Part shown: piece after piece, positions 2,789-58,324 of the stretch
How positions within the stretch are numbered: the first letter of the stretch is position 1
How the letters are laid out: each line of letters starts with the position of its first letter
Origin: Clostridia bacterium
Lineage (GTDB): Bacteria; Bacillota; Clostridia; TANB77; CAG-508
Assembly: GCA_017528085.1 (NCBI GenBank)
Contig: JAFXPH010000006.1
Span: 4,376-68,375 of the forward strand
DNA: 64,000 bases
Direction: 5' to 3'
Translations under genes and position numbers: made by a program
Notes under the pieces: generated by a model
Databases searched by the model: none
Told to the model about the DNA's origin: nothing
Seen by the model: the letters and a program-made list of their open reading frames with translations, nothing else

Positions 2789-4093
2789 ATGAATATTATT
2801 GATATTATTGAAAAGAAAAAAATATCTAGAGAATTAACAAAGCAAGAAATAGAGTTTTTTATTAATGGTTATACAGATGGTTCAATTGCAGATTATCAAG
2901 CTGCTGCATTAATAATGGCTATATGTATAAATGGTATGACACAAAATGAAATCCTTAATTTAACATTAGCTATGGCAAACTCAGGAGAGACTTTGGATTT
3001 GTCAGAAATATCTGATAATATCGTTGATAAACATTCTACAGGAGGTGTTGGAGATAAAATAACTTTAATTTTATCACCAATTATAGCTGCACTTGGAGTT
3101 CCTGTTGCTAAGATGAGTGGAAGAGGATTAGGAATTACAGGAGGAACAGCTGATAAACTTCAATCAATACCTGGATACAATACAGAAATATCAATAGATG
3201 ATTTTAAGAGAAATGTAAAAGATATTGGTATAAGTTTAATTTCTCAAACATTAAACTTAGCACCAGCTGATAAAAAAATATATGCATTAAGAGATAGTAT
3301 AGGCTGTACTAACAGCATTCCTCTTATTGCATCAAGTATAATGAGTAAGAAAATTGCAGCTGGAGCAAGTAATATAGTTTTAGATGTTACTTGTGGAAGC
3401 GGTGCATTTATGAAAGATAGAAAAGAAGCTGAAAAATTAGCCAAGATGATGAATCTAATTGGAGAATGGGCTCATAGAACTACAATTAGTATAATAACTA
3501 ATATGGATGAACCACTAGGACATGCAGTAGGAAATTCTTTAGAAGTTGTTGAATCAATTAACTTCTTAAAAGGTGATATGCCAGAAGATGTAAAAGAAGT
3601 AGTATTTACAATGGGTTCATATATGCTTAAACTTGCAGGAAAAGGAAATGACTTAAAACAAAATAGAGAAAAAATTCAAGCAGTAATAGATAGTGGAGAA
3701 GCATTTGAAAAATTTAGAGAACTTGTTATAAGACAAGGCGGAGATGTTTCATTTATAGATAATCCTGAAAAGTTTGAAAAAGCTCCTATTATTGTTCCAG
3801 TAGTAAGTAGAAGAGAAGGATATGTTCAAAGTTTAAACGCTGAAGTAGTAGGAAAAGCCGGAGTTGAACTAGGCGTTGGAAGAAAGAAAAAAGAAGATTC
3901 TATAGATCCAAGACTAGGATTCATCTTTGTTAAGAAAACTGGCGATTATGTAGATGATAATGAAGTGTTAGCATATGTTCATGCACCTGATGCTGAAAGA
4001 GCAGAAGAGGCTGTAAATAGAATTTTAGAAGCATATGATATTAGTTCACTAAAGCAAATTAAGAAGAATAATATACTAGAAGTTTTATACTAA
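2789..4093 (+). CDS. pdp: pyrimidine-nucleoside (thymidine) phosphorylase, copy 2 (tandem paralog)
   Basis: same DKHSTGGVGDK motif and colinear similarity to the upstream gene; RBS AAGGGG. Confidence 0.85.
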   Translation: MNIIDIIEKKKISRELTKQEIEFFINGYTDGSIADYQAAALIMAICINGMTQNEILNLTLAMANSGETLDLSEISDNIVDKHSTGGVGDKITLILSPIIAALGVPVAKMSGRGLGITGGTADKLQSIPGYNTEISIDDFKRNVKDIGISLISQTLNLAPADKKIYALRDSIGCTNSIPLIASSIMSKKIAAGASNIVLDVTCGSGAFMKDRKEAEKLAKMMNLIGEWAHRTTISIITNMDEPLGHAVGNSLEVVESINFLKGDMPEDVKEVVFTMGSYMLKLAGKGNDLKQNREKIQAVIDSGEAFEKFRELVIRQGGDVSFIDNPEKFEKAPIIVPVVSRREGYVQSLNAEVVGKAGVELGVGRKKKEDSIDPRLGFIFVKKTGDYVDDNEVLAYVHAPDAERAEEAVNRILEAYDISSLKQIKKNNILEVLY

Positions 4094-6098: not shown

Positions 6099-9000
6099 AT
6101 GAGTATTTTCTATGAAGAGGGTAATGAAGAAGAAGATGATGATTTAGACCCAAATAAGAAACAAAACGATGGTCAAGAAGATGAATCAAGTGAGTTTGAA
6201 GATGAGATTAGGGATAAATTAAAAGAAGAATTAAAGGAAAGAGATCAAGCAAAGAATCAGGAGCAAGCTAATAAAGACACTACTCAATCAAATCAAAATG
6301 GACAAGCTGAAGGTTCAAACAATACTCAAGGACAAGGAAATGGAACAGATTCTGCTCAAACTGGTTCTCAAAATGGACCACAAAATGGACCTCAAAGTGG
6401 ACCAGAAACGACTGGACAAGGACCAAGTACTTCAGGTACTACACCAAATGCTGCATCAGGTACAGCAAATGCAACTACTAATGCTACTAATGCAGGTGTT
6501 AATGCAGGAAGTAATGCAGCAGCTAGTACAACAGCAAGTACTGGAGCAGCTGGAACTGCAGGTGGAACTGCAGCAGCAGGTGCAGGTGGAGCAACAGCAG
6601 CAGGAGGAGCCGCAGCAGGAGGTTCAGCAGCAGCAGCTGGTGGAACTGCCGCAGCAGGTGCAGCTAGTGCCGGTGGAGCCGCAGCAGCAGGAGGTGCAGC
6701 AGCTGGTCTTGGAGTTGTACTATTCTGGGTATTAGTAGTTGCAATTATTTTATTTATTTTGATAGGTATAATTGCATTCTTATTAACAATGCCTGGTGTA
6801 GCATTGGCTAAATTAAAACAATTATTTGGAGTTTTGAAACAAGCCGTTGTAGCTTTCTTCGGTGGAGATACAACACAAATGATAGCTAACCAAGACATGT
6901 ATGATATTATGGATTACATAGAATCTATGGGTTATGACTTAAAAGGTGATGGATACTTAACTGAATTCTATGGAAGAGATTATTTAGCAAGTAGTGAATT
7001 TATAGATAGAATTAAACAAGATAACGAAGAAAGAGTAGAGAAAACTGGTGATACAAGTAAAAACTTACCAGAAGATACAACTGAAGGTTTTAGTTATGAA
7101 AACGGTGCAATAAGATATGGAGATAAGATAGCTGTTGCAGATAGTGATTTCTTAACTACATATATGATGAGTGATAACTATTGTTATACTGTAAAAAACT
7201 TTAACTTAGCTACTCAACAATCTGATGACAACTGGATTCAATCAATTTGGCATGGTATTGTAGCCCTTGCAGAAAAAGTTAATAGATGGGCCGCAAATCT
7301 AGTTGGGGCAAGTACAAAATCTGCTTCTAGATGGGGCAAGGGTATGATTTACCTAAAAGAAAGAAGTGCTTCTAGACAGAATGAATGGGATTGGGAAAAA
7401 CTTCCAGAATGGGCAAATGGATATACTTTATTCAAAGGTTCAAAAAGTGCTGAATTAGATGCAGGTGCACAAACTTTAACAATTAAAACAACGGAATGGT
7501 TTACATCAACTAAGATTGAATATTCACTTGAAGGTTGGACAGGCCGTTATGGTATGCCAATAGAATTCTTGCTTGCTATACATCAAGCAACAAGAATGCC
7601 TGACTTACCAATGAGTATGGTTGATTATTTCCCAACAACAATAAATATTGTATTAAATTCCGGAACAGTAGATGTTGATGCTATGGCTGTTGGTACTAAA
7701 GATACTCTAAGTAAAAGAGAAATTAAAGGTGACGGTTTATGGGATTGGCTTACTGGTGGAGGAGTAAATGAAATACAAATGTGTATAAAATATGGCTTCT
7801 GTGCTCCAGATTGTGAAGGAGTAGATGATAAAATCACAGGAGAACATGTTAATTGTTGTAATCAAACAATTCCTGAAGGTACAGACATAATGGAATATAC
7901 AGATCTTTCTATTTGCGATGCTTGTAAAACATATATGGATGGAATTACATCAGGAATTCAAGAGACAAATAGAGAAAATGCTGATACATATATACCATTT
8001 ATCCATAGCGTAAAAAATCATTGGTATAGAGATGTATTATTTGTAGCAAAGAGAGATAGCGAAGTAATAAATATTGATGATGATTATGAATTATTAATGG
8101 ATGAAAGATGGACTTTATACGATACAGATGATAATGGAAATACAATTTGGTATAAAGTTGACGAAAATGGAGAAACAACAAATGAAAAATGGAATGGAAC
8201 TAAAAAGGAAGCTCTAGAGGCTGGTGTAGCAGTTGCTAGAAAGGCTAAATTATCAAAACTAGAAGATAAATTTAAACCAGAAGGTTCAGATGACGAGAAA
8301 AATAAAGAGTTCCAAGGTGATTGGTGGACAGCATATTCATTTACTGATCAACAATCATCAGCTAAAGAAAAAGCATTCCCTGAGGAACCTCCAGAGAGTG
8401 GAAAAAGCCAAGTTTATTATGTTATGACTTTCACATCTGGTTATCCTAAACAATTAGAAGACGGTCAAAGAACAGAAACAAATAATATAATTAAAGATTT
8501 ATTCTTGAATAAATATTATTTGGCTTATAATGGTCAAGGGGATACAGCAGAAGAAATTTATAATTTAAGAAAAGAATTTTTAAGCAATAAGAGTTATAAT
8601 ACAGATCCAGAGTATGCAACAATGCCAGATGGTTCATATTATTATGGACCTATTCCAGATAATATGATTGAAAAAATGCTTACTACTACAGAGGCAGGCG
8701 GAAAGATTCTAAATAAAGAAGATGAGACATATGTAATGGCAAATCCTAACTATAATGCTCAACAGGAAGCAGTTTCAGGAGATGATCCTACAGCAGAAAA
8801 TGGAAATGTTTCTCATGAGAAATTAAACTTAGTAAATTACATTGCGCTACCTTCAGTAGACTCAAAAGCATTAGAAGCATTTACAATGTTAGAACATATG
8901 CATTCAGTTGATGCAGACTTTATTTATAAAGATTTTAAAGAATTAATAGTAGAACTTGGATATTTTGACAAAGAAGCATTAGCAGATCATATACCAGAGT

Positions 9001-11855
9001 TATTTGAATTTATAATTCCTGATATAGGATCAGGCGGTTTCCCAAAGAGAGAAATGGACAAGAGCGAACAATATGAAGGTACATTAGCACATTCAAAAGA
9101 GGACTATACAATTAATGAACAAAACACATTTGCTGCATTAGTTTCTACAATGACACCAGAGATTGACCCAGCATTATCAAAAGAGCAATACTTTAATGCT
9201 GTAAGTGATTTAAAATATGAAACAGAAGATGGTCAAACTATCGACCCTCAAGGAAAATCAAATCTATTCAGTGCGGCTGCTGCAGGAGATACAAATGCTG
9301 TACAAGGAGCAAGTGCATTTACAGCCGATAGTGAGACAACTGCTAAAACTTCATTTAGCAGACCAGTTGGAGCAAAAGTTAAAGGTGCTGCAAGATCTGT
9401 TGAATCTGTATCAATAGATGAATTCATAGAAGTTAACCAAGAAATGATAGACTACTGTATGCAAACAGGATATGATTATTGTGTATTAGTTGGTGATGCA
9501 GGTAATGGAGAACAAAATTGTAATCACGCACCAGTTCACGGAAATTCATGTAATTTACCAACATCATTTGAGAAGTCAAAAAATGGTGGTATACCAACTG
9601 CAAACTATTGTTGTGCTACATTGGTTTGCTGGGCACTTCAAAATGTTGAAGTTATTCCTGAATCTGACCATTTAGATGGTGCTGATTCACTTTGTGAATA
9701 TATTAAAAACGTATTAAATGCAGAAGTAATTCAAATAGGTGAACCATTAGAAGTTGGTGATATATTCTGCTATGATGGACATATTGACTATTTAGGTAAT
9801 GAAGACTCTGGTGGATTGATACTATTTAATGGTGGTCACTATTGTCCAATAGGATCTTCACTGGACTCAGATCATTCAGCATCACGTCACCAAAATGGTT
9901 GGCCAAGTGATGATAGATTAAAATTTGCATTAAGACTACCTTGGGGTGGTAAGAAGAAAGAACCTAAAAACTATGAAGGATTCATGGGAGGCGAAGCAGT
10001 AGTTTCACCAGTAACAGGTATTCTATTAGATTATGGTGTTTATGATGGTTCAATAACAAAGGAGACAAAGACAGTTGGCGAAGGAGATTTTGCTAACACA
10101 GTTGAAATACAACATGGACCAGACAGAGTAAACTTAAATAAATTATATCCTCCAATGGGATATCAATCAGTAATAGTTAACAAAAATAATGGAAAAGATA
10201 ATGATAATAATCAACCTGATACTCAAGTAACCACAGATGGACAAGAAGGAAAAGACCACATTGGTATGACACCAGAAGACATAGCAGAAACAACAGGTGG
10301 AGAGGTTGTAATAGATAAAGTTGCTTATGCTAAGATAATGACTTTAGATTATACTCATATTCAAAAGTTGGAAAATCACTTAGCTCACAATATACCACTA
10401 GCAGGAGGTGCGACATCACTTGTAAATTCAGAAGGTGGATTTGTTGAAGCAGATAAGATTAGTCCAGATAAGATAAGAGATTGGACAGATGATGAGATTA
10501 CATTATATGGCTATAAAGAGTTTGCAGAGTTATATTCAAAGTTTGGACTAGGTGGAACAATTATAACAATTGATGGATTTAAACCTGAAGCTCCAGTTGA
10601 AAAAGATGAAGAGGAAGAAGAGAAAACATATTCATCAGATCCAAGAGCTGAATATACAAATGTAAGTACAGAACCTCTAGGCGATGGTATTACACTTTCT
10701 AAATCATACTTTGCAAGTCAAAGTAAAGAATATAAGAAAACAAGATATGAACCTGATACAATCTATCAATTATCAACTGAAGCTGCTACAGATAAACAAA
10801 ATGCTGAAGCAACAATTAAGAAAGGTGCATATGCTATGTTAGCATATGGCGAAGATGAAATATATATTAAAGAAGGTACAGTTTTAGGTAGAACATATAC
10901 AAATAAAGAGTTTATAACAGAATGTAGAGATGGAGAATCATACGTAGATACTTATGATTCAAGAAAAGATCCAGATAATGAAGATGCTGCTACATTCTAT
11001 CAAAAGGATATGGATGGTAACTATATTAGAATAATAATGACTACATCAGATCAAACAACAGTAGAAAATGTTGAAGACTACATGAAGCTAGATGAAGTAG
11101 TTCATGACTTAGAAATCACAGATTGGTTATTATTCTACTGGATTCCATTTGAAGGTGGATGTACAAATACAACACCATATCAAGTAAAAGTAGTACAAAG
11201 ATATACAGGACCTTCATCAATAAGTACATGTTCAGAAGGTGAGGTTGCTATTGGTATTATCCAAGAGACAAGTTTGACAAGTAAAGGAATGTGTAACCAA
11301 AGAGATCAATTTGTACCATTCATGAAAAAGAATTATCCAGAAGTTTATAGCTACATTAGAGTTATGGATGGTAAAGATGCAAATTGGTGGTGGGAAGACT
11401 TTAATGGTGCTAACCAAGCACAAAAAGCAATTTCAGCATGTGATAAAGATATGCATGACTTATTACTAAAAGCAGAATTTGAAGAAGCAAAAGAGCACTA
11501 TTATAAGCCATTAATTGAGGAAATTCCATGGTTAGCATCAAAAAATGTTGCAGCTCAAGCTGAAATATTACACTTAAAAGTTTGGGGTGCAGATTATAAT
11601 GATATAACTGAAGGAATGTCAGATAAAGATTTAATAATGTATGCAAGAGAAAAAATCGCAACTACTTCTTCAACTGCAAACCAAAATCCAGATGGTGATA
11701 CAACTAAAGGTAGAGCATTTAATGAACCAGAGATTGGACTTGGTATTCTAGATGGAAGACTATCAGAAAGCGATATTGAAGAATTCGTAAAGACAGGTGA
11801 CTTTGGTATTATCACAAGTCATGGAGTTAAACAAGCTGGAGCTCAAACAAATTAA
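6099..11855 (+). CDS. giant (1918 aa) single-pass membrane protein: acidic + Ala/Gly/Asn/Gln-rich disordered N-terminal region, TM helix, large extracytoplasmic region with Cys-rich segment and CHAP/NlpC-P60-like Cys-His peptidase fold
   Basis: uninterrupted 5.7-kb ORF with AGAGGT RBS; TM at ~aa 240-275 (LGVVLFWVLVVAIILFILIGIIAFLL); motifs YCCATLVCWAL...GDIFCYDGHIDYLG resemble CHAP/peptidase C51 catalytic Cys and His. Confidence 0.75.
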   Translation: MSIFYEEGNEEEDDDLDPNKKQNDGQEDESSEFEDEIRDKLKEELKERDQAKNQEQANKDTTQSNQNGQAEGSNNTQGQGNGTDSAQTGSQNGPQNGPQSGPETTGQGPSTSGTTPNAASGTANATTNATNAGVNAGSNAAASTTASTGAAGTAGGTAAAGAGGATAAGGAAAGGSAAAAGGTAAAGAASAGGAAAAGGAAAGLGVVLFWVLVVAIILFILIGIIAFLLTMPGVALAKLKQLFGVLKQAVVAFFGGDTTQMIANQDMYDIMDYIESMGYDLKGDGYLTEFYGRDYLASSEFIDRIKQDNEERVEKTGDTSKNLPEDTTEGFSYENGAIRYGDKIAVADSDFLTTYMMSDNYCYTVKNFNLATQQSDDNWIQSIWHGIVALAEKVNRWAANLVGASTKSASRWGKGMIYLKERSASRQNEWDWEKLPEWANGYTLFKGSKSAELDAGAQTLTIKTTEWFTSTKIEYSLEGWTGRYGMPIEFLLAIHQATRMPDLPMSMVDYFPTTINIVLNSGTVDVDAMAVGTKDTLSKREIKGDGLWDWLTGGGVNEIQMCIKYGFCAPDCEGVDDKITGEHVNCCNQTIPEGTDIMEYTDLSICDACKTYMDGITSGIQETNRENADTYIPFIHSVKNHWYRDVLFVAKRDSEVINIDDDYELLMDERWTLYDTDDNGNTIWYKVDENGETTNEKWNGTKKEALEAGVAVARKAKLSKLEDKFKPEGSDDEKNKEFQGDWWTAYSFTDQQSSAKEKAFPEEPPESGKSQVYYVMTFTSGYPKQLEDGQRTETNNIIKDLFLNKYYLAYNGQGDTAEEIYNLRKEFLSNKSYNTDPEYATMPDGSYYYGPIPDNMIEKMLTTTEAGGKILNKEDETYVMANPNYNAQQEAVSGDDPTAENGNVSHEKLNLVNYIALPSVDSKALEAFTMLEHMHSVDADFIYKDFKELIVELGYFDKEALADHIPELFEFIIPDIGSGGFPKREMDKSEQYEGTLAHSKEDYTINEQNTFAALVSTMTPEIDPALSKEQYFNAVSDLKYETEDGQTIDPQGKSNLFSAAAAGDTNAVQGASAFTADSETTAKTSFSRPVGAKVKGAARSVESVSIDEFIEVNQEMIDYCMQTGYDYCVLVGDAGNGEQNCNHAPVHGNSCNLPTSFEKSKNGGIPTANYCCATLVCWALQNVEVIPESDHLDGADSLCEYIKNVLNAEVIQIGEPLEVGDIFCYDGHIDYLGNEDSGGLILFNGGHYCPIGSSLDSDHSASRHQNGWPSDDRLKFALRLPWGGKKKEPKNYEGFMGGEAVVSPVTGILLDYGVYDGSITKETKTVGEGDFANTVEIQHGPDRVNLNKLYPPMGYQSVIVNKNNGKDNDNNQPDTQVTTDGQEGKDHIGMTPEDIAETTGGEVVIDKVAYAKIMTLDYTHIQKLENHLAHNIPLAGGATSLVNSEGGFVEADKISPDKIRDWTDDEITLYGYKEFAELYSKFGLGGTIITIDGFKPEAPVEKDEEEEEKTYSSDPRAEYTNVSTEPLGDGITLSKSYFASQSKEYKKTRYEPDTIYQLSTEAATDKQNAEATIKKGAYAMLAYGEDEIYIKEGTVLGRTYTNKEFITECRDGESYVDTYDSRKDPDNEDAATFYQKDMDGNYIRIIMTTSDQTTVENVEDYMKLDEVVHDLEITDWLLFYWIPFEGGCTNTTPYQVKVVQRYTGPSSISTCSEGEVAIGIIQETSLTSKGMCNQRDQFVPFMKKNYPEVYSYIRVMDGKDANWWWEDFNGANQAQKAISACDKDMHDLLLKAEFEEAKEHYYKPLIEEIPWLASKNVAAQAEILHLKVWGADYNDITEGMSDKDLIMYAREKIATTSSTANQNPDGDTTKGRAFNEPEIGLGILDGRLSESDIEEFVKTGDFGIITSHGVKQAGAQTN
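6440..6720 (+). repeat. GC-rich low-complexity tract (GCA/GGT/GGA codon runs encoding poly Ala/Gly/Thr) inside the giant gene
   Basis: runs such as GCAGCAGCAGG / GGTGGAGC repeated; locally much higher GC than the surrounding AT-rich DNA. Confidence 0.7.
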
Positions 11856-15035: not shown

Positions 15036-18000
15036 ATGAATTCACTAGTAAAAGTTTTGCCTAGTCTTGAAAAATATAATGACTACATCTTTAATTTGAA
15101 AAAGGGTGTAAGTCCTATAATGCTTTCAGGACTGACAGATGTAGCTAAAGTACATATGGCATATTCAACAAAATTTTATACAGAAAAGCCAATATGCATA
15201 GTTACATATAACGAATTACAAGCTAAAAAAATAATAAATGATTTAGCATATTTTGAAGAAGAAGTTAAATTATTTCCAAAAAGAGATCTAATTAGTTTCG
15301 ACTATATAGTTGAAAGTAAAGATACTTTATATAGTAGAATTGAAGTATTAAATGATATCTATAAGGGTAATAATCCAATTATAGTAACAACTATAGAGGC
15401 TATGCTTCAAAAGATGATAAAGAAAGATAGTTTATATAAAAATGTTCTATCTATTAAAGTAGGAGATACTATCGATTTAGAGAAACTTAAGGAAAAACTT
15501 ATCTTACTTGGTTATGAAAGATATGATTTAATCGAAGGTAAAGGACAGTTCTCAATAAGAGGTGGTATCGTCGATGTTGCAACTTCTAAGACAGAAGGTG
15601 TAAGAATTGAACTTTGGGGAGATGAAGTTGATTCAATTAGGAACTTTAACATATCTACTCAAAGAACTACAGAAATGATTGGTGAATTTGATATTTATCC
15701 TTCTTTTGAATTCTTGCTTGAAGATAGTTTAGATAATATTGCTAAGAAGATTGATGAAAAGAATTATCCTCAATCAGTTAGAGTAAAAGTTGATGAAGAT
15801 ATAGAAGCAATCAAAGAAGGCGATTATTTAAACAAGATAGACAAATACTTTAATGAATTTTATCCTGAGACAGATACTCTTCTAGATTATCTATCAGACA
15901 ATTATATTGTATTTATAGATGAGATAGAAAAATTAAAGAGTAGAGCAATAAGTATAGAAAAAGATAATGAATCTTTAGTTAAAGATTTAATATCAAGAAA
16001 TAAATTAGTTCCAGGAATATTCATTTCAGACAATAACTATGAAAAATTTATTACTGAACTTGAAGATACTAAACAAACAATATATCTAGAAAGACAAGAT
16101 GTTGGATTTATAGATAAACAAAGTATGCATGCAAAAAGAAACGGATATAGCTTTAGCTATAGGGAGGTTAACTTTTTTCGTAGTTCAATGGATCTATTGT
16201 TTAAGGAATTACAAGAAGCTACTAAAAGAGGAAAAGGAACAATAGTCCTAGGCGGAAACGCTGAGAACTCAAAAAGACTTTCAAACATACTTTTGGAGCA
16301 TGATATTCAAACACAATACATGGAAAAACTAGAAGATGACTTAGCTCTTGGTGTCGTAATTGTTACACCAGGGGCTTTTAGTGCTGGCTTTGAATTCTAT
16401 GATGCAAATATTTTATTAGTTTCTATTGGTGAAATGTTTGAACCAAAACCTGTAAGAAAAAAGAAAATGGGTAAGACTTTTAAGGAAAGCGAAAAGATAG
16501 TTTTTGCAGACTTAAAAGAGGGAGATTATATTGTTCATAGATACCATGGTATTGGTCAGTATATAGGAGTAAATACTATAAGAGCTGACGGAGTAACTAA
16601 GGACTATGTTAAAATTAAATATTTAAATGGTGACCTTTTATATGTTCCTACTGATTCTTTAGATAACATTAGAAAATATATCGGTGATGAGAAAAATGGT
16701 CCGAGATTAAATAAACTAGGATCTAAGGACTGGGAGAAGACTAAAGCAAAAGTAAAGAGCAATTTAAGAGAGGTTGCAGAAGAACTAATAGAACTATACG
16801 CTAAAAGACAAAAAATGAAAGGCTACGCATTCTCAAAGGATACAGCATGGCAAAATGAATTCGAAAATAGTTTTAACTATGTTGAAACTGATGATCAATT
16901 AAGGTGTATTGAAGAAATCAAAAAAGATATGGAAGCTGATAAGCCAATGGATAGATTATTATGTGGAGATGTTGGCTATGGAAAGACTGAGGTTGCTATG
17001 AGGGCTGCGTTTAAAGCTGTTATGGATGGTAAACAGGTAGCATATCTAGCACCAACAACAGTCCTTTCTAATCAACAACTAGACTCTTTTAAAGAGAGAA
17101 TGAAAGACTATCCAGTAAGAATAGATATCCTAAATAGATTTAAAACAAAAAAAGAACAAAAAAATACCCTTAATAAGCTCGAAAATGGAAATTTAGACAT
17201 TTTAATCGGAACACATAGAATATTAAGTAACGATGTAAAATTTAAAAATTTAGGCCTTCTAATTGTCGACGAAGAGCATAGATTTGGTGTTAAAGCTAAA
17301 GAGAAAATAAAAGAGTATAAAAACAATGTTGACGTACTTACAATGACAGCTACTCCTATACCAAGAACATTACATATGTCTATTGTAGGAATGAGAGATT
17401 TATCTGTTATTTATGAGCCTCCTCAAAACAGAAAACCGGTTCAAACTTATGTATTTGAATATGATGAAGAAGTTATTAAAGAGGCAATAACAAAAGAAAT
17501 AGAAAGAGAAGGACAAGTTTTCTATCTATATAACAATGTTGAAGGTATTGAGAAAAAAGTAGTAGAAATCTCACAATTAGTACCTGAAGCAAAGGTGGTA
17601 TATGCACATGGAAAAATGACAGGTAATGAGATAGAAAATATCATGGAAGATTTCGTTGAAGGAAAGACTAATGTTTTAGTATGTACAACAATTCTAGAAT
17701 CTGGTATTGATATTCCAAATGCTAATACAATTATTGTTGAAAATGCAGATAGATTAGGCCTAGCTCAGCTATACCAAATAAGAGGTAGAGTAGGTAGATC
17801 TGATAGACAAGCATATGCATATATTACATATAAAAGGGATAAGATGCTTTCAGAAGTTGCTGATAGTAGATTAAAAGCAATAAAAGAATTTACTGAGTTC
17901 GGTTCTGGATATAAGATTGCTATGCGTGACTTAGAAATAAGAGGTGCAGGAAGTTTAATGGGAGAAATACAACATGGTCATATGGAACAAGTAGGATATG

Positions 18001-18494
18001 ACATGTATTGTAGACTATTAGACGAAGTAGTAAAAGAATTAAGAGGCGAAAAGGTAGAAGAAGAAAAAGATATCCAAATCGATATCAATTTATCAAGTTA
18101 TATTCCAGAAGAATACATATCTTCTAATTCTCAAAAAATTGAAGTATATCAAAACATTGCTCTATGTAAAACTGAAGAAGATATCTTAAATGTAACTGAT
18201 GAAATAATAGATAGATATGGACCAATACCTAAAGAAATTGAGAACTTACTTGATATAGTGAGAATAAAAACATTAGCAGGTAAAAAGAATATATTAAAGA
18301 TAATTCAAAGAAATCAAAATGTTTTATTCTATTTTGATCCAGAAGAATTTGACTTTAACATAGTTAATAATTTAATAAAACTATACAAAAATAAGATTAA
18401 GTTTTCACCATCTCAAGAACCATATATTACTCTTAATATTAATGAATATAGTGATTTGGTAAAAGCAATAATGAAATTTTTAAATTGTATATAA
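15036..18494 (+). CDS. mfd: transcription-repair coupling factor
   Basis: 1152 aa; UvrB-homology N-term, DEAD/H helicase motifs (LLCGDVGYGKTEVA, DEEHRFG, TATPIPRT, QLYQIRGRVGR). Confidence 0.95.
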   Translation: MNSLVKVLPSLEKYNDYIFNLKKGVSPIMLSGLTDVAKVHMAYSTKFYTEKPICIVTYNELQAKKIINDLAYFEEEVKLFPKRDLISFDYIVESKDTLYSRIEVLNDIYKGNNPIIVTTIEAMLQKMIKKDSLYKNVLSIKVGDTIDLEKLKEKLILLGYERYDLIEGKGQFSIRGGIVDVATSKTEGVRIELWGDEVDSIRNFNISTQRTTEMIGEFDIYPSFEFLLEDSLDNIAKKIDEKNYPQSVRVKVDEDIEAIKEGDYLNKIDKYFNEFYPETDTLLDYLSDNYIVFIDEIEKLKSRAISIEKDNESLVKDLISRNKLVPGIFISDNNYEKFITELEDTKQTIYLERQDVGFIDKQSMHAKRNGYSFSYREVNFFRSSMDLLFKELQEATKRGKGTIVLGGNAENSKRLSNILLEHDIQTQYMEKLEDDLALGVVIVTPGAFSAGFEFYDANILLVSIGEMFEPKPVRKKKMGKTFKESEKIVFADLKEGDYIVHRYHGIGQYIGVNTIRADGVTKDYVKIKYLNGDLLYVPTDSLDNIRKYIGDEKNGPRLNKLGSKDWEKTKAKVKSNLREVAEELIELYAKRQKMKGYAFSKDTAWQNEFENSFNYVETDDQLRCIEEIKKDMEADKPMDRLLCGDVGYGKTEVAMRAAFKAVMDGKQVAYLAPTTVLSNQQLDSFKERMKDYPVRIDILNRFKTKKEQKNTLNKLENGNLDILIGTHRILSNDVKFKNLGLLIVDEEHRFGVKAKEKIKEYKNNVDVLTMTATPIPRTLHMSIVGMRDLSVIYEPPQNRKPVQTYVFEYDEEVIKEAITKEIEREGQVFYLYNNVEGIEKKVVEISQLVPEAKVVYAHGKMTGNEIENIMEDFVEGKTNVLVCTTILESGIDIPNANTIIVENADRLGLAQLYQIRGRVGRSDRQAYAYITYKRDKMLSEVADSRLKAIKEFTEFGSGYKIAMRDLEIRGAGSLMGEIQHGHMEQVGYDMYCRLLDEVVKELRGEKVEEEKDIQIDINLSSYIPEEYISSNSQKIEVYQNIALCKTEEDILNVTDEIIDRYGPIPKEIENLLDIVRIKTLAGKKNILKIIQRNQNVLFYFDPEEFDFNIVNNLIKLYKNKIKFSPSQEPYITLNINEYSDLVKAIMKFLNCI

Positions 18495-18536
18495 AAAAAC
18501 TGAGCTGCACCGGAATTCCGATGCAGCTCTTTTTGG
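18492..18536. terminator. bidirectional GC-rich rho-independent terminator
   Basis: GAGCTGCACCGG-AATT-CCGATGCAGCTC hairpin flanked by A7 upstream and T5 downstream; serves convergent mfd (+) and 18545..19084 (-). Confidence 0.75.
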
Positions 18537-18544
18537 GATGCAAC

Positions 18545-19084
18545 TTACATTGTGCTATTGGCCTCGAAGGTAACGGTATAGGTGGCAAATTTCTCCTTGC
18601 ACCACGTGAAGACCTTGTCCGTGAAAGCATACCCCTCGGGGACGACGGAACGGATTTCCTGAAGTTCATCGTAAGAAAATTCTCGTTTCCCAGCGGGGAA
18701 GACGATCTTAAACTGGATGGAGTCAGGGAAGAAGTGGTCAAGGTACTTGGTACCAAGTTCCACTTCGATGATGTTTACACCATAAGACCTGATTTTGTCG
18801 TACAACTTCACGAAGGAAGTGTAGTGGGGAAAATTCACCCAAATCTTGTCTCTGGTGTAAGAGAACACCTCACCAATGTTCTTGATGTTGCTCTTGTCCG
18901 TCATGAAAAGTTCTTGCGCGATGCTTTTGGCGATTTCATCCGTGAGGTCACTGTGGAAGCAGAAAACCACCTCTCCGTCTGAAGAGTCTTGACGACAATC
19001 AAACTTGAGATGATTTGCTTCGAAGTACCCACATAGCCGCTCTACCATTGACCCAATGTTAGGCTCGAACCGAATGAAGTCCAT
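18545..19084 (-). CDS. hypothetical cytoplasmic protein (179 aa) on a GC-rich island
   Basis: strong AGGAGG RBS 8 nt upstream of minus-strand ATG at 19084; codon usage and GC clearly differ from neighbours; + strand ORF 18485..18982 is its antisense shadow. Confidence 0.6.
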   Translation of the reverse strand: MDFIRFEPNIGSMVERLCGYFEANHLKFDCRQDSSDGEVVFCFHSDLTDEIAKSIAQELFMTDKSNIKNIGEVFSYTRDKIWVNFPHYTSFVKLYDKIRSYGVNIIEVELGTKYLDHFFPDSIQFKIVFPAGKREFSYDELQEIRSVVPEGYAFTDKVFTWCKEKFATYTVTFEANSTM

Positions 19085-19164
19085 AAACGATCCCTCCTTA
19101 AGTACTCATGCAAAAGCATGGACTTTTATTATAGCACAGGAAGTCATAAAAATCAATAAATCAA

Positions 19165-19193
19165 GTGACTTAAAGGTTTTTATATGTTATAAT
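19165..19193 (+). promoter_or_regulatory. sigma-A-type promoter with extended -10 (GTGACT - 17 nt - TGtTATAAT)
   Basis: TATAAT at 19188..19193 preceded by TG at 19185..19186; -35-like GTGACT at 19165..19170. Confidence 0.4.
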
Positions 19194-19224
19194 AAAGAAG
19201 ATAAAAAAGAAAAGGAATAAAAAA

Positions 19225-19992
19225 ATGGTAATTATTTCAAGTAAAGATAATGATATTATCAAACATATCAAAAAACTTAGCGAAAAGAAGTATAGAGAAG
19301 AGTTTGGAGAATATGTAATCGAAGGAAAGAAAATAGTAGAAGAAGCTATAGAAAATGGAGCAGATATAGAAAGAATTGTTGTATCAGAATCATTTATTAG
19401 AGTAAATAATATGAAAGATGTGACAATAGTAACAGATAAAGTATTTGAAAGTATGTCAGGACTTGTAAATTCAGAAGGAGTTTTAGCAGTTATTAGAAAC
19501 AAAAAGCTAGATGAAGAAAATATAGATTTATCTCATGATTTTTATCTAATATTAAATGATATTCAAGATCCAGGAAACCTAGGAACAATAATTAGAACTG
19601 CAGATTCTTTAAATATTAAACAAATATTAGTTACTGATAAAACTGTAGATGCATATAACCCTAAAGTAGTAAGATCTACAATGGGAGCTATCTTTAGAGT
19701 TAAGATAATTACAATTAATGATATAAAAAAGACAATAGAAAAGCTAAAAGAAAATGGTATAAAAGTGTACACTACAGACTTAAATACAGAAAATACTATT
19801 TATAGTATTTCATTTGATAAAGCAGCTGTTGTAATAGGAAATGAAGCAAATGGAGTTTCAGAAGAAGTAAAGAATATGTGCGATTCAAGATTTATAATTC
19901 CAATGCTAGGAAAAACAGAAAGTTTAAATGCAGCTGTAGCTACAGGTGTAGTATTGTATGAAGCATTTAGAAATAAATTAATGAATAAATAA
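19225..19992 (+). CDS. TrmH/SpoU-family RNA 2'-O-methyltransferase (RlmB-like)
   Basis: SPOUT C-terminal motifs (VIGNEANGVS, ESLNAAVATGVVLYE), 255 aa. Confidence 0.8.
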   Translation: MVIISSKDNDIIKHIKKLSEKKYREEFGEYVIEGKKIVEEAIENGADIERIVVSESFIRVNNMKDVTIVTDKVFESMSGLVNSEGVLAVIRNKKLDEENIDLSHDFYLILNDIQDPGNLGTIIRTADSLNIKQILVTDKTVDAYNPKVVRSTMGAIFRVKIITINDIKKTIEKLKENGIKVYTTDLNTENTIYSISFDKAAVVIGNEANGVSEEVKNMCDSRFIIPMLGKTESLNAAVATGVVLYEAFRNKLMNK

Positions 19993-24840: not shown

Positions 24841-24934
24841 TTTAAAAAAGGTTACATAAAATTTGATATTTAAAAGTAAAAGTGCTATAATTAAGGAGGT
24901 TACCGTTTTATTAATTTATAAGGAGGATGACACT

Positions 24935-25765
24935 ATGTCAAAGACGGAACGGTACACTATTACTCGGGGATTGATTCTGATTATCATCATGATGATTGTT
25001 TCAATCTCTATGCCTATCACTGCGATGGCATTCGAGAGCTTCTCTGTTGGCTCGGTTGTCTACGTGAATGTCGAAGACTTCCTTCGCATAAGAGAAGAAC
25101 CACAAGGTGAAATCATTGGTCAAATTCCAAGAGGTGGAACTGTTACTATTCTCTCTCAAAGAGACAGGAACGGATACTATAAAGTCAAAGTAAATAGCAC
25201 AGGTGAAACTGGCTATTGCTATGGCGAGTATCTGACTTCTGAAAAAGTCGAAAGGAGAGGAAAAGCACAGACTACCCAAGAAGAAACCCATGAGAGTACT
25301 ACCGAGTGGTACATTGGAGACCTTGCGTATGCAAATGTTTCTCAACGACTAATCCTAAGAAAAGGACCGTCAAAAAAGACCAAGTCCATTGGGTACATTG
25401 AGAAGGATACAGAAGTAGAAATCATGTCTGAAATGGCAGAAAATGGATATATCGAAGTTAAGGTTCTAAAGACCGGAACTATCGCATATGTCGACTCGTA
25501 CTATCTTAAGAAAATTGAGGTAGAGGAGTTTGAATGCCAAGACTATGATGTGTGTCCTGGAATGGTAATGTACGTGGATAATAGAGGGAGACTGAATTTC
25601 AGAAAGAATCCGACTATGTCCAATAATGTACGATTCCAACTCCATCCGGGTGACGAAGTCACAATACTCTCCTTGGAGATTATTGATGGATTCGTAAATG
25701 TCTGTACCTCAAATGGAACCGAAGGATATGTCAAACTCGAATTCCTGACATTTGATAAGCATTGA
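24935..25765 (+). CDS. secreted/membrane-anchored protein with three bacterial SH3 (SH3b) repeats, on GC-rich island
   Basis: AAGGAGGA RBS before ATG 24935; signal/anchor ILIIIMMIVSISMPITAMA; three ~65-aa repeats each with ...GYVKxxYL-type SH3b signature; GC markedly above neighbours. Confidence 0.65.
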   Translation: MSKTERYTITRGLILIIIMMIVSISMPITAMAFESFSVGSVVYVNVEDFLRIREEPQGEIIGQIPRGGTVTILSQRDRNGYYKVKVNSTGETGYCYGEYLTSEKVERRGKAQTTQEETHESTTEWYIGDLAYANVSQRLILRKGPSKKTKSIGYIEKDTEVEIMSEMAENGYIEVKVLKTGTIAYVDSYYLKKIEVEEFECQDYDVCPGMVMYVDNRGRLNFRKNPTMSNNVRFQLHPGDEVTILSLEIIDGFVNVCTSNGTEGYVKLEFLTFDKH

Positions 25766-27345: not shown

Positions 27346-27849
27346 ATGAAACTTAATATTGTAATGGTAGAACCAGAAATACCACAAAACACTGGAAACA
27401 TAGCAAGAACATGTGCGGCTTTAGGTGCAAAACTTCATTTAGTATATCCACTAGGATTTTCTATAGATGAAAAACAAGTAAAAAGAGCTGGACTTGATTA
27501 TTGGGATAAATTAGAAATAGAAGAATATATGGATTTAGATGAATTTTTAGAAAAACACAAACCTGAAGAAACTAATATGTATTTCTCAACAACAAAGGGA
27601 AAACATGTTTATTCAGATGTAGACTATAGTAAATTTGATGAAGTATACTTACTTTTTGGAAAAGAGACTAAAGGACTTCCAGAACCACTACTTATGAAGT
27701 ATATTTCAAATACTATTAGAATACCTATGAGAGATGGACTAAGATCACTTAATTTATCTAATTCTGTAGCTATTGTAGCATATGATGTTGCAAGGCAAGC
27801 AGGGTTTGACAATTTGCTTCAAATTAGCCCATATTTTGATGATAAATAG
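27346..27849 (+). CDS. trmL: tRNA (cytidine/uridine-2'-O)-methyltransferase TrmL (SPOUT)
   Basis: MKLNIVMVEPEIPQNTGNIARTCAALG N-terminus typical of TrmL/YibK; 167 aa. Confidence 0.8.
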   Translation: MKLNIVMVEPEIPQNTGNIARTCAALGAKLHLVYPLGFSIDEKQVKRAGLDYWDKLEIEEYMDLDEFLEKHKPEETNMYFSTTKGKHVYSDVDYSKFDEVYLLFGKETKGLPEPLLMKYISNTIRIPMRDGLRSLNLSNSVAIVAYDVARQAGFDNLLQISPYFDDK

Positions 27850-49643: not shown

Positions 49644-52600
49644 ATGAAAGTTTTATTTGCAGTTAGTAGCGAGGCTATTTCAGAAGGAATAGTTAGACAA
49701 TATCAAAAAGAATATAAAGAGATATTGTCTTATAAAAATGTTTATTACTTTAATGCAATATTAAAAGAAATACAACAAGATAAATCATATGACAGAATTG
49801 TCATATCAGAGGATTTAGAGTCATTTTCAAATAATAACTACGAACAAATCGATAAGTTCTTATTTGAGAAGTTAGATAATATTAGTGATGAGGCACAAGA
49901 TATTAATGGTCAAGAAACAGCAATCATTTTAATATGTTCTGAAAGAAGAAACAAGGGTAGTGCTTTCTTAAACAAGATTTTTAGTATCGGTATTTATAAT
50001 GCTTTATTAGGTCAAGATAGAATTAAGACAAATGTTTGTAAATTAATTAATAAGCCTAGAATTAAAAAAGAAGCCAAGACATACTATGCTATTGATGCTG
50101 AAGATGCTAATTATGATCAAAGCAATGATGAAGAAGTATCTGAAATTGAAATAACAAATATTAGAAATCACTTTAGAAAATTAGGAAAGAATACTGATAA
50201 GTATGCTGAGAGCTTTAATAATATTGCTGCTCAATATACTGATGATCAATTAAAAATTGTTGTTAACTGTTTACCTGCACAAGTTAAACAAGTTCTTGAA
50301 AAAACATCACCAAGATATCAAGAATTTATGGCAGCAGGAAATGTTAAATCAGTTGCTAATATGTCTGTTGAAGAAGAAGCAAAATCTTCAGGATTAAAGA
50401 TGGACTTCATTTCTAAGAATAAAAATACTATTGATAAACCAATAGTTATTCCATCTTCAGTTCGTAGAAGAACACCTTCTGCTTCAGGAACAGCAAGCTC
50501 TAGTTCAAGTGGTGTATCTACAATTAGAAGAGTAACAAACACAATTAAGCCAGAAGCAAATAAAGCTCCAACTCCAGCTGAAGAAAAAACAGCAGAAAAT
50601 GTTGAGAATGAACTTGATGCGCTAGATGATTTACTAGCACCTCAAGAAGATAAAGCAAATGATATTAATGATAATTTATTAAATATGGATAATACATCAA
50701 ATGAAGTTCCAAATGAATCAGCAGATGATATGTTATCAGCACTAGATGACTTGGGTGGAACTGATGATCTACTAAATCCAGAACCAACAGCAGAAGAACC
50801 TGTTGTAGAAGAAACTGCTAAAGAGGATGATGGAATACTTCCAGGATTCGATGATTTAGGAGGATCAGATGATTTATTAAATCCAGAACCAACAGCAGAA
50901 GCACCTGCTGCAGAGGATGATGGAATTCTTCCAGGATTCGATGATTTAGGTGGAACTGATGACTTATTAAATCCAGAACCAACAGCAGAAGAACCTGCTG
51001 CAGAGGATGATGGAATTCTTCCAGGATTCGATGATTTAGGAGGATCAGATGATTTATTAAATCCAGAACCAACAGCAGAGGAACCTGCTACAGATGATGA
51101 TTTATTACCAGGATTTGATGACTTAGGAGGATCAGATGATTTATTAAATCCAGAACCAACAGCAGAAGAACCTGCTACAGAGGATGATGGAATACTTCCA
51201 GGATTCGATGATTTAGGTGGAACTGATGACCTATTAAATCCAGAGCCAACAGCAGAAAAACCTGCTACAGAGGATGATGGAATACTTCCAGGATTTGATG
51301 ATTTAGGTGGAACTGATGACCTATTAAATCCAGAACCAACAGTAGAAAAACCTGCTGAAGAAGATGATATGCTTCCAGGATTAGATGATTTAGGTGGAAC
51401 TGATGATTTATTAAATCCAGAACCAACAGTAGAAGAATCTACTGAAGAAGATGACATGCTTCCAGGATTAGACGATCTTTCAAATATAGATGATGAAGAA
51501 CCTAAAAAGAGAGGTAGAGGAAGACCAAGAAAAATTATTACTGAGCCTCCAAAACCAAAGGGAAAAAGAGGTAGACCTAGAAAAAATCCTGTTGGAGAAG
51601 ATGGTTCAACATTACCTGGAATGGGATTTGAAGATGATGAATATACAGACGAAGTAGACATCGAAGGATTAGATGAACTTGATGATTACACAGATGAAAG
51701 CTTCGGCGATGTTGAAACAAACAACACTGCAGATGATGGAATGTTACCAGGATTTGATGATTTAGATGTTACTGATGATACTACATCAGATTCATCTGAA
51801 AGTTCAGTTGATGATTTATTATCAGGATTAGATGATTTAGGAGGAGATACTCCTGTAGCTGACAGCACTCCTAGTGATGATATGCTACCAGGTTTAGATG
51901 ATGTAGATGATTTATTAGGTGGCGAAACTCCAGCAAATAATAATCCTGAACCTACTAAGATAGATACTGTAAAACCAACAGTAGATTATTCAATGTCAAG
52001 TTTAAATAGTTTATTAACACCAGATAAGAAGATAGCAACATTTATAGGAACATCTAAAAATGGTACATCTTTCTTAGTTAATAACCTTGGATTATTATTT
52101 GATACAATTGGTAAGAATGTAGCTATCTTAGATATGACTAAAAATAGAAATTCTTATTACATCTTTAATTGTAACGATGAAGAGTTAAGAAAAGTATGTA
52201 ATAATTCATTTAGCAATTTGGAAAGAGGTGTAGCAGAAGGAATTAGAGTTAAACCTAATTTAACTGTTTATACTGGACTACCAGATGATGGAAAAGTGTA
52301 TAAAAATGTTGAAGCTATGCTATCAACATTAGTACAAAATCATGATATAGTATTAATAGATTGTGATTTTGATACAGATCCTTCATTCTTTGCTAAGTGT
52401 CAAGAAATATATCTTGTTCAATCAATGGATACATTAACAATTCAACCATTGACATACTTCTTAAAGATATTACAAGATAGAGAAGTATTAGAACCAGAAA
52501 AAATTAGAATAGTACTTAACAAAGTAGTTAAGTTAAGAGGATTCCAACCAAAAGATTTCGTTGGAGGTATGTCATGTTATAATGCTCCTTCAATGTCAGT

Positions 52601-52895
52601 AATGAGAACATTGTTTAATCCTCAATTAGTAAAAGTGTTTACAATAAACTTTGAAGAAAGTGTTTATATTAGATACTTAGATGCTATTGCAGCATGTAAG
52701 ATGACTTTAGATGGTTACTCAAAGACATTTATGGCTGCATTAAAGCAACTTGCTCAATCTGTTTATTCATTTAACAATGGTGGCGGAATGAGAACAAATA
52801 TTGGTGCACCAACTCAACCACAAATGAGACCAGGAGCACAATTTACAAGTAATATGAATAACACATTAGACAAAATGAAAAGAAATATGAATTAG
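49644..52895 (+). CDS. modular 1083-aa protein: receiver-like N-domain, ~8 near-perfect plus ~4 degenerate acidic [DDGILPGFDDLGG(S/T)DDLLNPEPTAEEPA]-type motifs, two AT-hooks (GRGRPRK, KRGRPRK), C-terminal MinD/ParA-like domain with degenerate Walker A
   Basis: GGAGGAG RBS 7 nt before ATG 49644; repeats visible in DNA; C-terminal IATFIGTSKNGTSFLVNNLG...VAILDMT...IVLIDCDFD aligns to MinD/ParA deviant Walker A region but lacks the GK[ST] lysine. Confidence 0.7.
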   Translation: MKVLFAVSSEAISEGIVRQYQKEYKEILSYKNVYYFNAILKEIQQDKSYDRIVISEDLESFSNNNYEQIDKFLFEKLDNISDEAQDINGQETAIILICSERRNKGSAFLNKIFSIGIYNALLGQDRIKTNVCKLINKPRIKKEAKTYYAIDAEDANYDQSNDEEVSEIEITNIRNHFRKLGKNTDKYAESFNNIAAQYTDDQLKIVVNCLPAQVKQVLEKTSPRYQEFMAAGNVKSVANMSVEEEAKSSGLKMDFISKNKNTIDKPIVIPSSVRRRTPSASGTASSSSSGVSTIRRVTNTIKPEANKAPTPAEEKTAENVENELDALDDLLAPQEDKANDINDNLLNMDNTSNEVPNESADDMLSALDDLGGTDDLLNPEPTAEEPVVEETAKEDDGILPGFDDLGGSDDLLNPEPTAEAPAAEDDGILPGFDDLGGTDDLLNPEPTAEEPAAEDDGILPGFDDLGGSDDLLNPEPTAEEPATDDDLLPGFDDLGGSDDLLNPEPTAEEPATEDDGILPGFDDLGGTDDLLNPEPTAEKPATEDDGILPGFDDLGGTDDLLNPEPTVEKPAEEDDMLPGLDDLGGTDDLLNPEPTVEESTEEDDMLPGLDDLSNIDDEEPKKRGRGRPRKIITEPPKPKGKRGRPRKNPVGEDGSTLPGMGFEDDEYTDEVDIEGLDELDDYTDESFGDVETNNTADDGMLPGFDDLDVTDDTTSDSSESSVDDLLSGLDDLGGDTPVADSTPSDDMLPGLDDVDDLLGGETPANNNPEPTKIDTVKPTVDYSMSSLNSLLTPDKKIATFIGTSKNGTSFLVNNLGLLFDTIGKNVAILDMTKNRNSYYIFNCNDEELRKVCNNSFSNLERGVAEGIRVKPNLTVYTGLPDDGKVYKNVEAMLSTLVQNHDIVLIDCDFDTDPSFFAKCQEIYLVQSMDTLTIQPLTYFLKILQDREVLEPEKIRIVLNKVVKLRGFQPKDFVGGMSCYNAPSMSVMRTLFNPQLVKVFTINFEESVYIRYLDAIAACKMTLDGYSKTFMAALKQLAQSVYSFNNGGGMRTNIGAPTQPQMRPGAQFTSNMNNTLDKMKRNMN
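50730..51480 (+). repeat. in-frame tandem repeat, 90-nt period (about 8 near-identical copies, one 87-nt), followed by degenerate copies to ~51940
   Basis: unit GAGGATGATGGAATWCTTCCAGGATTCGATGATTTAGGWGGAWCWGATGAYTTATTAAATCCAGAACCAACAGCAGAAGMACCTGCTGCA recurring at 50823, 50913, 51003, 51090, 51180, 51270, 51361, 51451. Confidence 0.85.
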
Positions 52896-57910: not shown

Positions 57911-58324
57911 TTATCTATTTTTGTGTCTCCGAATAGTACCAGTGGTACCATCCCAATCAACGAGTTCATAGCGCCCTAAATGACCTCCAATCTTATCCTG
58001 TGGTGGAACAAGTGGACTATACATGAGAAATAATCTTTCGGCGTCATCGACGTCAAAAGTAAAATATTCTCCGTCTTCTGTAAGTATTGAATAGGTGCAG
58101 TAGCATCTACCGCGAAAATATCCAATAGCTACATAAGAGTCCTCAATTACCTCATCAAAATCAGGATTTGCCTCTACGGCATTTCTGAAAGTGTTATTGA
58201 GAGAATCAGCTCCATCAACAACATGAATGCGGTCTTTGTCCGCTTCAAACTGCTTGGCTGGGGTCGCGCATGCGCTTAAAACTACTAAAAAAACAACAAT
58301 AGCAAGTAAATAAAATTTCTTCAT
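57911..58324 (-). CDS. lipoprotein (137 aa) on GC-rich island, unknown function
   Basis: lipobox LSAC after signal MKKFYLLAIVVFLVV; GC clearly above neighbours; GGAAGG RBS. Confidence 0.6.
   Translation of the reverse strand: MKKFYLLAIVVFLVVLSACATPAKQFEADKDRIHVVDGADSLNNTFRNAVEANPDFDEVIEDSYVAIGYFRGRCYCTYSILTEDGEYFTFDVDDAERLFLMYSPLVPPQDKIGGHLGRYELVDWDGTTGTIRRHKNR

Follow-up and report, generated by a model that had tools for sequence, protein, structure and literature searches.

Whether a short GC-rich gene in a very AT-rich genome is a recent arrival from elsewhere, or whether a long-standing resident can come to look like one, is the question raised by a locus in a 64,000-nt stretch of DNA from a Clostridia bacterium (GenBank assembly GCA_017528085.1, contig JAFXPH010000006.1, positions 4,376 to 68,375). 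This stretch, referred to as the window, carries an open reading frame (ORF) of 179 codons on the minus strand between the mfd and trmH genes, and the initial annotation took this small gene for a recently inserted foreign cassette. The cassette-like form that it described, with outlying codon usage, was found as stated, here as a unit of promoter, gene and terminator, whereas neither 'recent' nor 'foreign' is supported. The gene is real and under purifying selection, with a nonsynonymous-to-synonymous substitution rate ratio (dN/dS) of 0.09–0.16 in comparisons with three orthologs; its slot is conserved, and no donor was found in the collections searched. Members of its family occur only in a single group of uncultured, very AT-rich Firmicutes from gut and rumen. 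With a little better than even confidence, it is regarded here as an old accessory gene that has repeatedly been lost and whose silent sites have been held GC-rich, most likely by selection on the transcript; we infer both this selective force and a high level of expression.

The roughly 600-bp GC-rich stretch reported at first was recovered in sliding windows of 300 nt, which gave a G+C content (GC) of 0.45–0.48 across positions 18500–19100 and 0.21–0.27 on either side. This island is among the strongest GC peaks of the window (mean 0.296, standard deviation (sd) 0.045), in which values above 0.38 occur at only a few other sites, namely low-complexity stretches in two giant proteins and two more single genes. 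The ORF (18545–19084) has a GC of 0.465, with 0.45, 0.32 and 0.628 at the first, second and third codon positions (GC1, GC2 and GC3). This GC3 compares with a mean of 0.173 (sd 0.046) for the 61 other ORFs of the window (z = 10), and an index of the codon adaptation type, calculated against the usage of the window, was 0.27 for the small gene and 0.735 for the others (z = -6.9), by both of which its status as a codon-usage outlier is borne out. Among the unusual codons listed initially, CTC (2 occurrences), GTC (4) and CGG (2) are indeed present, but GGC is never used, the odd glycine codon being GGG (4 of 8). The codons preferred by the host are avoided almost completely: TTA, ATA and CCA are absent, and AGA accounts for one of seven arginine codons.

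Codon classes of every kind are shifted in the window gene. C-ending two-fold codons reach 0.70 (0.22 in the host), G-ending two-fold codons 0.56 (0.20), and GC at four-fold sites 0.55 (0.05). At the carrier loci that were scored, the GC3 of the gene in the slot was 0.24–0.63 against 0.07–0.19 for its neighbours (2–6 times), and GC1 and GC2 resembled those of the host. Beyond the coding sequence and its terminator the excess is gone, as GC3 is 0.13 in the last 100 codons of mfd and 0.14 in the first 100 codons of trmH, and the GC of the promoter spacer is 0.19–0.33. Polarisation of the silent changes within the window clade (the window and its close relatives) disclosed 10 changes from AT to GC and 9 from GC to AT. 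Theoretical neutral decay is expected to yield about 12% AT-to-GC changes (P = 2e-5), and the empirical process of the flanks, a null that absorbs a parsimony bias exposed by an mfd control, 20% (P = 0.002). The implied equilibrium GC3 is about 0.6–0.67, and high GC3 persists between lineages whose silent sites are saturated (proportion of silent differences, pS, 0.54–0.77). The GC excess of the small gene is synonymous only and without decay. Since only silent sites are shifted, the excess occurs in every carrier, the changes are balanced and no donor was found, the composition does not appear to be the relic of a transfer; a donor-like composition is contradicted by the host-like GC1 and GC2 and by polarised silent changes without decay toward AT.

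The transcript itself offers a candidate target of selection. Predicted folding of the coding sequence beat that of synonymous-codon shuffles in all ten orthologs (z from -1.4 to -4.0, mean -2.7), while 18 control genes folded at a mean z of -1.1 (Mann-Whitney P = 0.0013, counting independent lineages). In bacteria it is established that AT-biased mutation is countered by a GC-favouring force (PMC2936535, PMC2936529), for which GC-biased gene conversion (gBGC; PMC4450053) and direct selection (PMC4478552) are candidates. In the history proposed here, the gene would date back to an ancestor shared by the carrier lineages and would have passed down vertically since then, with a rate of evolution three to four times that of its neighbours and with repeated loss or truncation. 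It would be transcribed as a monocistronic unit from its own sigma-70-type extended -10 promoter, placed back to back with that of trmH; a Shine-Dalgarno sequence close to the ideal would start its translation, and the GC-rich hairpin that ends its transcript would do the same for mfd. Its GC3 would be kept at a high equilibrium against the AT-biased mutation of the host, most likely by selection for a stable, structured and well-translated mRNA, with efficiently read C-ending codons as a partial contribution.

Two other kinds of constraint on silent sites were considered and rejected. An antisense ORF of 165 codons (18485–18982, in the directly complementary frame) would suggest dual coding; it runs without stops in the GC-rich lineages alone and holds 7–11 stop codons in the milder ones, its openness being a by-product of the avoidance of TTA, CTA and TCA codons. 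As to a known RNA, Rfam gave nothing at the gathering thresholds, and no tRNA gene lies in the window. The silent divergence, which is above that of the flanks, and the lack of conservation of the antisense ORF speak against constraint from an overlapping gene or from a particular conserved RNA.

Two further genes of the window depart from its codon usage. The second outlier (24863–25765, plus strand; GC 0.40, GC3 0.40) encodes a secreted-looking protein of 300 aa with bacterial SH3 domains, whose ortholog in a related locus (L002; 89% identical) has a GC3 of 0.37, and it may display the same persistent synonymous GC excess. The third (57911–58324, minus strand; GC 0.40, GC3 0.30) is a lipoprotein-like ORF of 137 codons with no Pfam match and a shuffle z of -3.2 for its mRNA.

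The age of the gene was assessed from its position in related genomes; related loci are referred to by number where they have to be told apart. Every family member for which DNA context was available occupies the slot between mfd and the SpoU-type methylase gene, with its 3' end facing that of mfd and its 5' end that of the methylase gene; beyond the slot come genes for DUF4364, PepF and a two-component pair. The gene was found in every relative within the window clade (TrmH 84–96% and Mfd 88–98% identical, the Mfd of L009 being a mosaic) and in four other deep lineages; at least five deep lineages have it in the same slot. The Mfd proteins of three deep carrier lineages are 72–76% identical to one another and 60–63% identical to that of the outgroup L010, which lacks the gene and in which mfd overlaps trmH. 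Between deep lineages the proteins encoded in the slot are 20–28% identical, and their neighbours 50–75%. Within one set of lineages (group C) the identities of the slot proteins track those of housekeeping genes, which indicates vertical descent with fast evolution. Occupation of one slot in all close relatives and in lineages this deep is at variance with a recent insertion.

The L009 locus deserves a separate description. It is 96–100% identical to the window in the flanking DNA of the interval 16200–19400 and 90–97% identical across the small gene; its identity falls to 59–70% in the 5' part of mfd (window 15400–16100), which marks either a recombination breakpoint or a chimeric metagenome contig.

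A scan of GTDB genomes with TrmH returned a single informative relative, L010, and a metagenome scan with the neighbouring DUF4364 protein added 53 loci. This wider sampling comprised 16 full-length carriers, two half-length forms, and ten loci (L010 included) with an empty slot and a tight or short mfd-trmH junction, the two genes overlapping or lying 6–63 nt apart. The gene is missing only in lineages at a Kimura protein distance of about 0.47 or more. The synteny comparison proposed initially has a double outcome: mfd runs straight into trmH in the ten empty loci, whereas the gene is kept in all close relatives, so that its presence is universal inside the window clade and patchy across the wider family. 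In a bootstrapped tree of concatenated proteins, the window clade groups with the empty loci L052 and L081 (85% bootstrap), and the empty L046 pairs with the carrier L039 (85% bootstrap). In L046 an AT-rich spacer of 206 nt remains that has a promoter of its own, and L053 and L058 encode only the C-terminal half of the protein (positions 82–159 of the hidden Markov model, approximately 88–104 aa), the half-length form of L058 (7626–7940) still having a GC3 of 0.50. The spacer of L046 is deletion-like and the halves in L053 and L058 look like stages of loss; the half-length forms may be decay products or functional single-module versions. The slot is not a general insertion hotspot, as large gaps in L036, L039 and L049 turned out to be split mfd or trmH ORFs.

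Several observations weigh against an old gene under transcript selection. The tree was built by neighbour joining, the roughly 1,000 columns behind it have gaps in the data and its root is weakly anchored, and the lineages with an empty slot are interspersed with carriers. In L052 and L081, the nearest sampled relatives of the window clade, mfd and trmH overlap at a TAATG junction like that of an undisturbed operon; taken alone, this junction favours gain in the window clade over precise loss. The polarisation test comprises 19 changes, with P = 0.049 once the internal-branch class is omitted, and parsimony, as seen in the mfd control, yields too many AT-to-GC changes. Silent sites of the small gene have diverged 2–3 times as much as those of the flanks, and selection by itself does not account for this. 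Lastly, the excess of mRNA structure is modest, one ordinary control gene having z = -3.1; mixed codon usage in a gene may give the shuffle test greater power, and helices within the coding region cannot be validated with four sequences.

The gene encodes a small soluble protein, acidic and of the alpha+beta type, that belongs to an undescribed family. Its predicted isoelectric point is 5.0 and it has no hydrophobic segment (maximum Kyte-Doolittle value over 19 aa, 0.50), which is consistent with the cytoplasmic location suggested initially. A word-indexed search found four close clusters, and an exhaustive profile search of 1.84 billion representatives yielded three further small proteins with expectation values (E) of 1e-5 to 7e-4. 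A broader profile enlarged the family to about 14 of 5.8 billion clusters (90% identity), and nothing more came from a third search. The family alignment is collinear with common motifs, and the shared synteny of the slot corroborates the weak sequence similarity among members. Searches of Pfam, NCBIfam and PHROGs with 15 members gave only scattered, single-member matches at chance level, PADLOC gave no match to the small protein at E <= 10, and no match was found among PDB sequences or, by tblastn at E <= 0.01, in phage and plasmid collections. One apparent homolog, a cadherin-like repeat protein of 2473 aa (P0005, E 2e-22), proved to be an artefact, its score being the sum of 12 weak repeat matches to a single stretch of 48 residues.

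An AlphaFold2 model from an alignment of 15 sequences (mean predicted local distance difference test score, pLDDT, 77.5; predicted template modelling score, pTM, 0.76) displays four successive helix-strand-strand units, for which Foldseek retrieved no credible fold partner from PDB or BFVD. An internal duplication was dismissed, the N- and C-terminal halves matching each other only 1.7 sd above shuffled sequences. The order of the elements, together with the motif LCGYFEANH, called to mind a LAGLIDADG homing endonuclease; this was rejected since the acidic residue is replaced by Lys or others in other members, Pfam gave no match, and I-DmoI and I-AniI were retrieved only at Foldseek E 0.03–0.3 with template modelling (TM) scores of 0.2–0.24. 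The suggestion of an immunity or anti-defence protein found no support, given the lack of any match to PADLOC, Pfam or PHROG models and of any toxin, antitoxin or defence signature. As the protein is small and acidic, lacks any enzyme signature and exists in half-length forms, we guess, with low confidence, at a binding or regulatory module rather than a recognisable enzyme. Of note, an allele of the L001 type has a 1-nt insertion near the 3' end (L001 near 7450; alignment A4, columns ~559–575) that alters the C-terminal residues and leaves a protein of 175 instead of 179 aa.

A more specific proposal can be offered only tentatively, and its probability is put well below even. It holds that the silent sites have long been kept at GC3 0.5–0.63 (genome 0.10–0.18) since the transcript must be GC-rich and structured, and that the protein represents a new fold family with full- and half-length forms and a hidden, possibly conflict-related role.

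Among the explanations that depart from an old resident gene, the one that fares best revives the foreign cassette, although it is considered unlikely. It supposes that an ancestor of the window clade with a tight mfd-trmH junction gained gene, promoter and terminator together from an unsampled, GC-richer donor, and that the other carriers acquired theirs separately or by recombination through the conserved flanks. The intact-looking TAATG junction, which occurs in L043, L060, L064 and the outgroup L010 as well as in L052 and L081, agrees with this, as do the extreme codon usage of a self-contained unit, the raised silent divergence, and the sharp identity break inside the mfd of L009, which shows that recombination occurs in the region. 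It has to contend, however, with the lack of any homolog outside the slot in 5.8 billion clusters, 1.84 billion representatives and the phage and plasmid collections, where neither a donor nor a mobile-element relative was found; all homologs share one slot and one orientation. It also has to accommodate the host-like GC1 and GC2 and a GC3 that does not decay. The low identity of slot proteins between deep lineages, with its tracking of host genes in group C, means that any transfers were ancient or came from unseen sources. An integrase, a tRNA gene, an attC core and a convincing target duplication are all absent, and the neighbours of the small gene are housekeeping genes, without mobility genes.

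Two particular forms of insertion were examined and discarded. An integron cassette would call for features that the locus lacks, as neither a GTTRRRY nor an RYYYAAC attC core lies near the hairpin and no integrase was found. Imperfect direct repeats at 18468–18505 (at the mfd stop) and 19247–19281 (at the 5' end of trmH) resemble an insertion scar; an unrelated site scores equally and other lineages display nothing of the kind, and these bracketing repeats are probably chance matches between AT-rich sequences.

Translational selection alone, i.e. very high expression with codons tuned to the tRNA pool so that C-ending codons are raised, is judged improbable. C-ending codons for Phe, Tyr, Asn, Asp, His and Ile are more frequent in all nine lineages tested (0.25–0.70 against 0.06–0.22), in L019 this increase is almost the only shift, and consensus matches point to a strong promoter and Shine-Dalgarno sequence in all lineages. 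Most lineages nonetheless raise G-ending Lys, Glu and Gln codons and four-fold G/C to the same degree (four-fold GC 0.26–0.56 against 0.03–0.14, with GGG, CCC, ACG and GTG used), in a comparison made without the ribosomal-protein or tRNA genes of the same genome. The tRNA-matched optimal codons of AT-rich Firmicutes follow a different pattern. This equal shift of G-ending and four-fold sites argues against pure adaptation to tRNAs, and fast protein evolution with repeated loss would be unusual for a very highly expressed protein.

Still less probable is gBGC or a local mutational peculiarity, resulting from frequent recombination or from head-on transcription on the lagging strand. Recombining bacterial genes tend toward higher GC3 (PMC4450053). 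The presence/absence pattern at the locus, the mosaic neighbour gene in L009 and the elevated silent divergence can be read as marks of such recombination, and the small gene does lie on the minority strand of a window whose cumulative GC skew rises steadily. The sharp stop at the coding sequence and terminator, with adjacent mfd and trmH codons and the spacer as AT-rich as the genome in all lineages checked, argues against a regional process of this type. The effects of gBGC in bacteria are reportedly far below a difference of 0.63 against 0.17, and the version based on the strand is opposed by the DUF4364 gene, which lies 1 kb away on the same minus strand with a GC3 of 0.17. Least probable of all is that rare GC-ending codons deliberately throttle or condition the translation of a potentially harmful or condition-specific protein, e.g. 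through starvation-dependent tRNA charging, which suits the avoidance of nearly every host-preferred codon and a fast-evolving, often-lost accessory gene, but is opposed by strong promoter and Shine-Dalgarno signals and by the lack of a toxin, antitoxin or defence signature, and has no direct evidence in its favour.

Comparison with known systems places the locus between established categories. It resembles a horizontally acquired genomic islet in its outlying composition, self-contained unit, location between core genes and absence from the same junction in several relatives; it differs in having no mobility genes, tRNA anchor, flanking repeats, donor or mobile homolog, and in the occupation of one slot across deep lineages with a GC shift limited to silent sites and devoid of an amelioration signal. 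Very narrow distribution, lack of a domain or fold match, fast evolution and repeated loss are traits of taxonomically restricted (orphan) accessory genes. The composition of such genes is usually that of the host or close to it, however, whereas the small gene keeps a GC3 of 2–6 times that of its neighbours together with strong, conserved expression signals. The shift toward TTC, TAC, AAC, GAC, CAC and ATC and the strong Shine-Dalgarno sequence and promoter recall highly expressed genes of AT-rich Firmicutes, from which the gene departs in the far larger magnitude of its shift and in its extension to GGG, CCC, ACG, GTG and AAG, that is, general GC enrichment. As in genome-wide GC-favouring selection or conversion (PMC2936535, PMC2936529, PMC4450053, PMC4478552), a force toward GC appears to balance AT-biased mutation at silent sites, though here it would be confined to one 540-nt gene with sharp edges. 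The description that fits best is a taxonomically restricted accessory gene with an unusual, persistent, synonymous-only GC enrichment.

Atypical GC and codon usage are routinely taken as proof of recent horizontal transfer, and here the classic signs are borne by an old resident of its slot; the locus would serve as a caution for composition-based island finders applied to AT-rich genomes from gut and rumen. Should selection on the transcript indeed be the cause, it would provide a compact natural system in which to ask why a GC-rich coding sequence is favoured against AT-biased mutation, and a natural, gene-sized case of selection on GC content that is independent of the protein. On present evidence nothing remarkable can be stated of the small protein, and the locus does not amount to a demonstrated new kind of system.

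Table 1 Features of the mfd-trmH slot, with positions in the window.
Feature	Position	Strand	Remarks
mfd (transcription-repair coupling factor)	15036–18494	+	Convergent with the small gene; the 98% identical L001 ortholog has Pfam CarD_TRCF_RID, DEAD, Helicase_C and TRCF
GC-rich hairpin, predicted terminator common to mfd and the small gene	18502–18529	both	12-pair stem, 4-nt loop
GC-rich ORF, 179-aa acidic soluble protein of an undescribed, clade-restricted family	18545–19084	-	Supported by the ORF and dN/dS
Shine-Dalgarno sequence AAGGAGGG	19092–19099	-	7 nt upstream of ATG; read from the sequence
Short stem-loop CCAUGCUUUUGCAUGA	19106–19121	-	At the predicted 5' end of the transcript
Promoter-like site of the small gene (TTGATT, 17 nt, TATAAT, upstream TG)	19128–19156	-	10/12 consensus matches; consensus match only
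Promoter-like site of trmH (GTGACT, 17 nt, TATAAT, upstream TG)	19165–19193	+	10/12 consensus matches; divergent
SpoU/TrmH-family RNA 2'-O-methyltransferase gene	19225–19992	+	Divergent from the small gene; the 96% identical L001 ortholog has SpoU_sub_bind and SpoU_methylase

The expression signals of the small gene (Table 1) are conserved. The strong ribosome-binding site described initially contains the motif AAGGAGG, and AAGGAGG or AAAGGAG is kept in all orthologs, as is a TGnTATAAT element upstream of the gene. The short stem-loop near the predicted 5' end has an invariant stem and a variable loop in four sequences of the window clade, and it may serve to stabilise the mRNA. In the window trmH has a promoter-like site of its own, and in genomes with an empty slot it abuts or overlaps mfd.

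Read on the minus strand, the hairpin contains one G-U pair (folding free energy, dG, -23.6) and is followed by seven T (AGTTTTTTTA); on the plus strand it contains one C-A mismatch (dG -19.4) and is followed by TTTTT, the mfd stop codon lying 7 nt ahead of it. Two of its pairs are changed on both sides in L007 with pairing kept, and a strong hairpin of different sequence occurs at the same place in every ortholog. The stem and the T-runs on both strands, between convergent genes, with these compensatory pairs, render plausible the bidirectional use that was proposed for this terminator. It is predicted to be stronger for the small gene and probably weaker for mfd, in view of the C-A mismatch and the run of only five T. 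In its GC-rich stem, A-run and T-run and compensatory changes the element is like other bidirectional intrinsic terminators between convergent genes, and nothing about it is unusual. Just past the stop codon of the small gene, an invariant ATCCC (window 18530–18544; also in L001, L007 and L009) is predicted to form pairs with GGGAU in the Shine-Dalgarno region, which suggests a possible 5'-3' interaction within the mRNA, without support from covariation.

Elsewhere in the window, the highest GC peak (0.55 at 6201–6950) is due to the Ala/Gly/Thr/Asn-rich, low-complexity N-terminal region of a 1918-aa protein (6099–11855, plus strand), for the ortholog of which no Pfam family is recorded. A further GC bump (50701–51450) arises from about ten tandem acidic repeats (DDLGGTDDLLNPEPTAEEP...) in a protein of 1083 aa (49644–52895, plus strand). 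Two adjacent, paralogous pyrimidine-nucleoside phosphorylase genes occupy 1454–2773 and 2789–4093 on the plus strand, and at 27346–27849 lies another SpoU-family methylase gene, shorter than the first.

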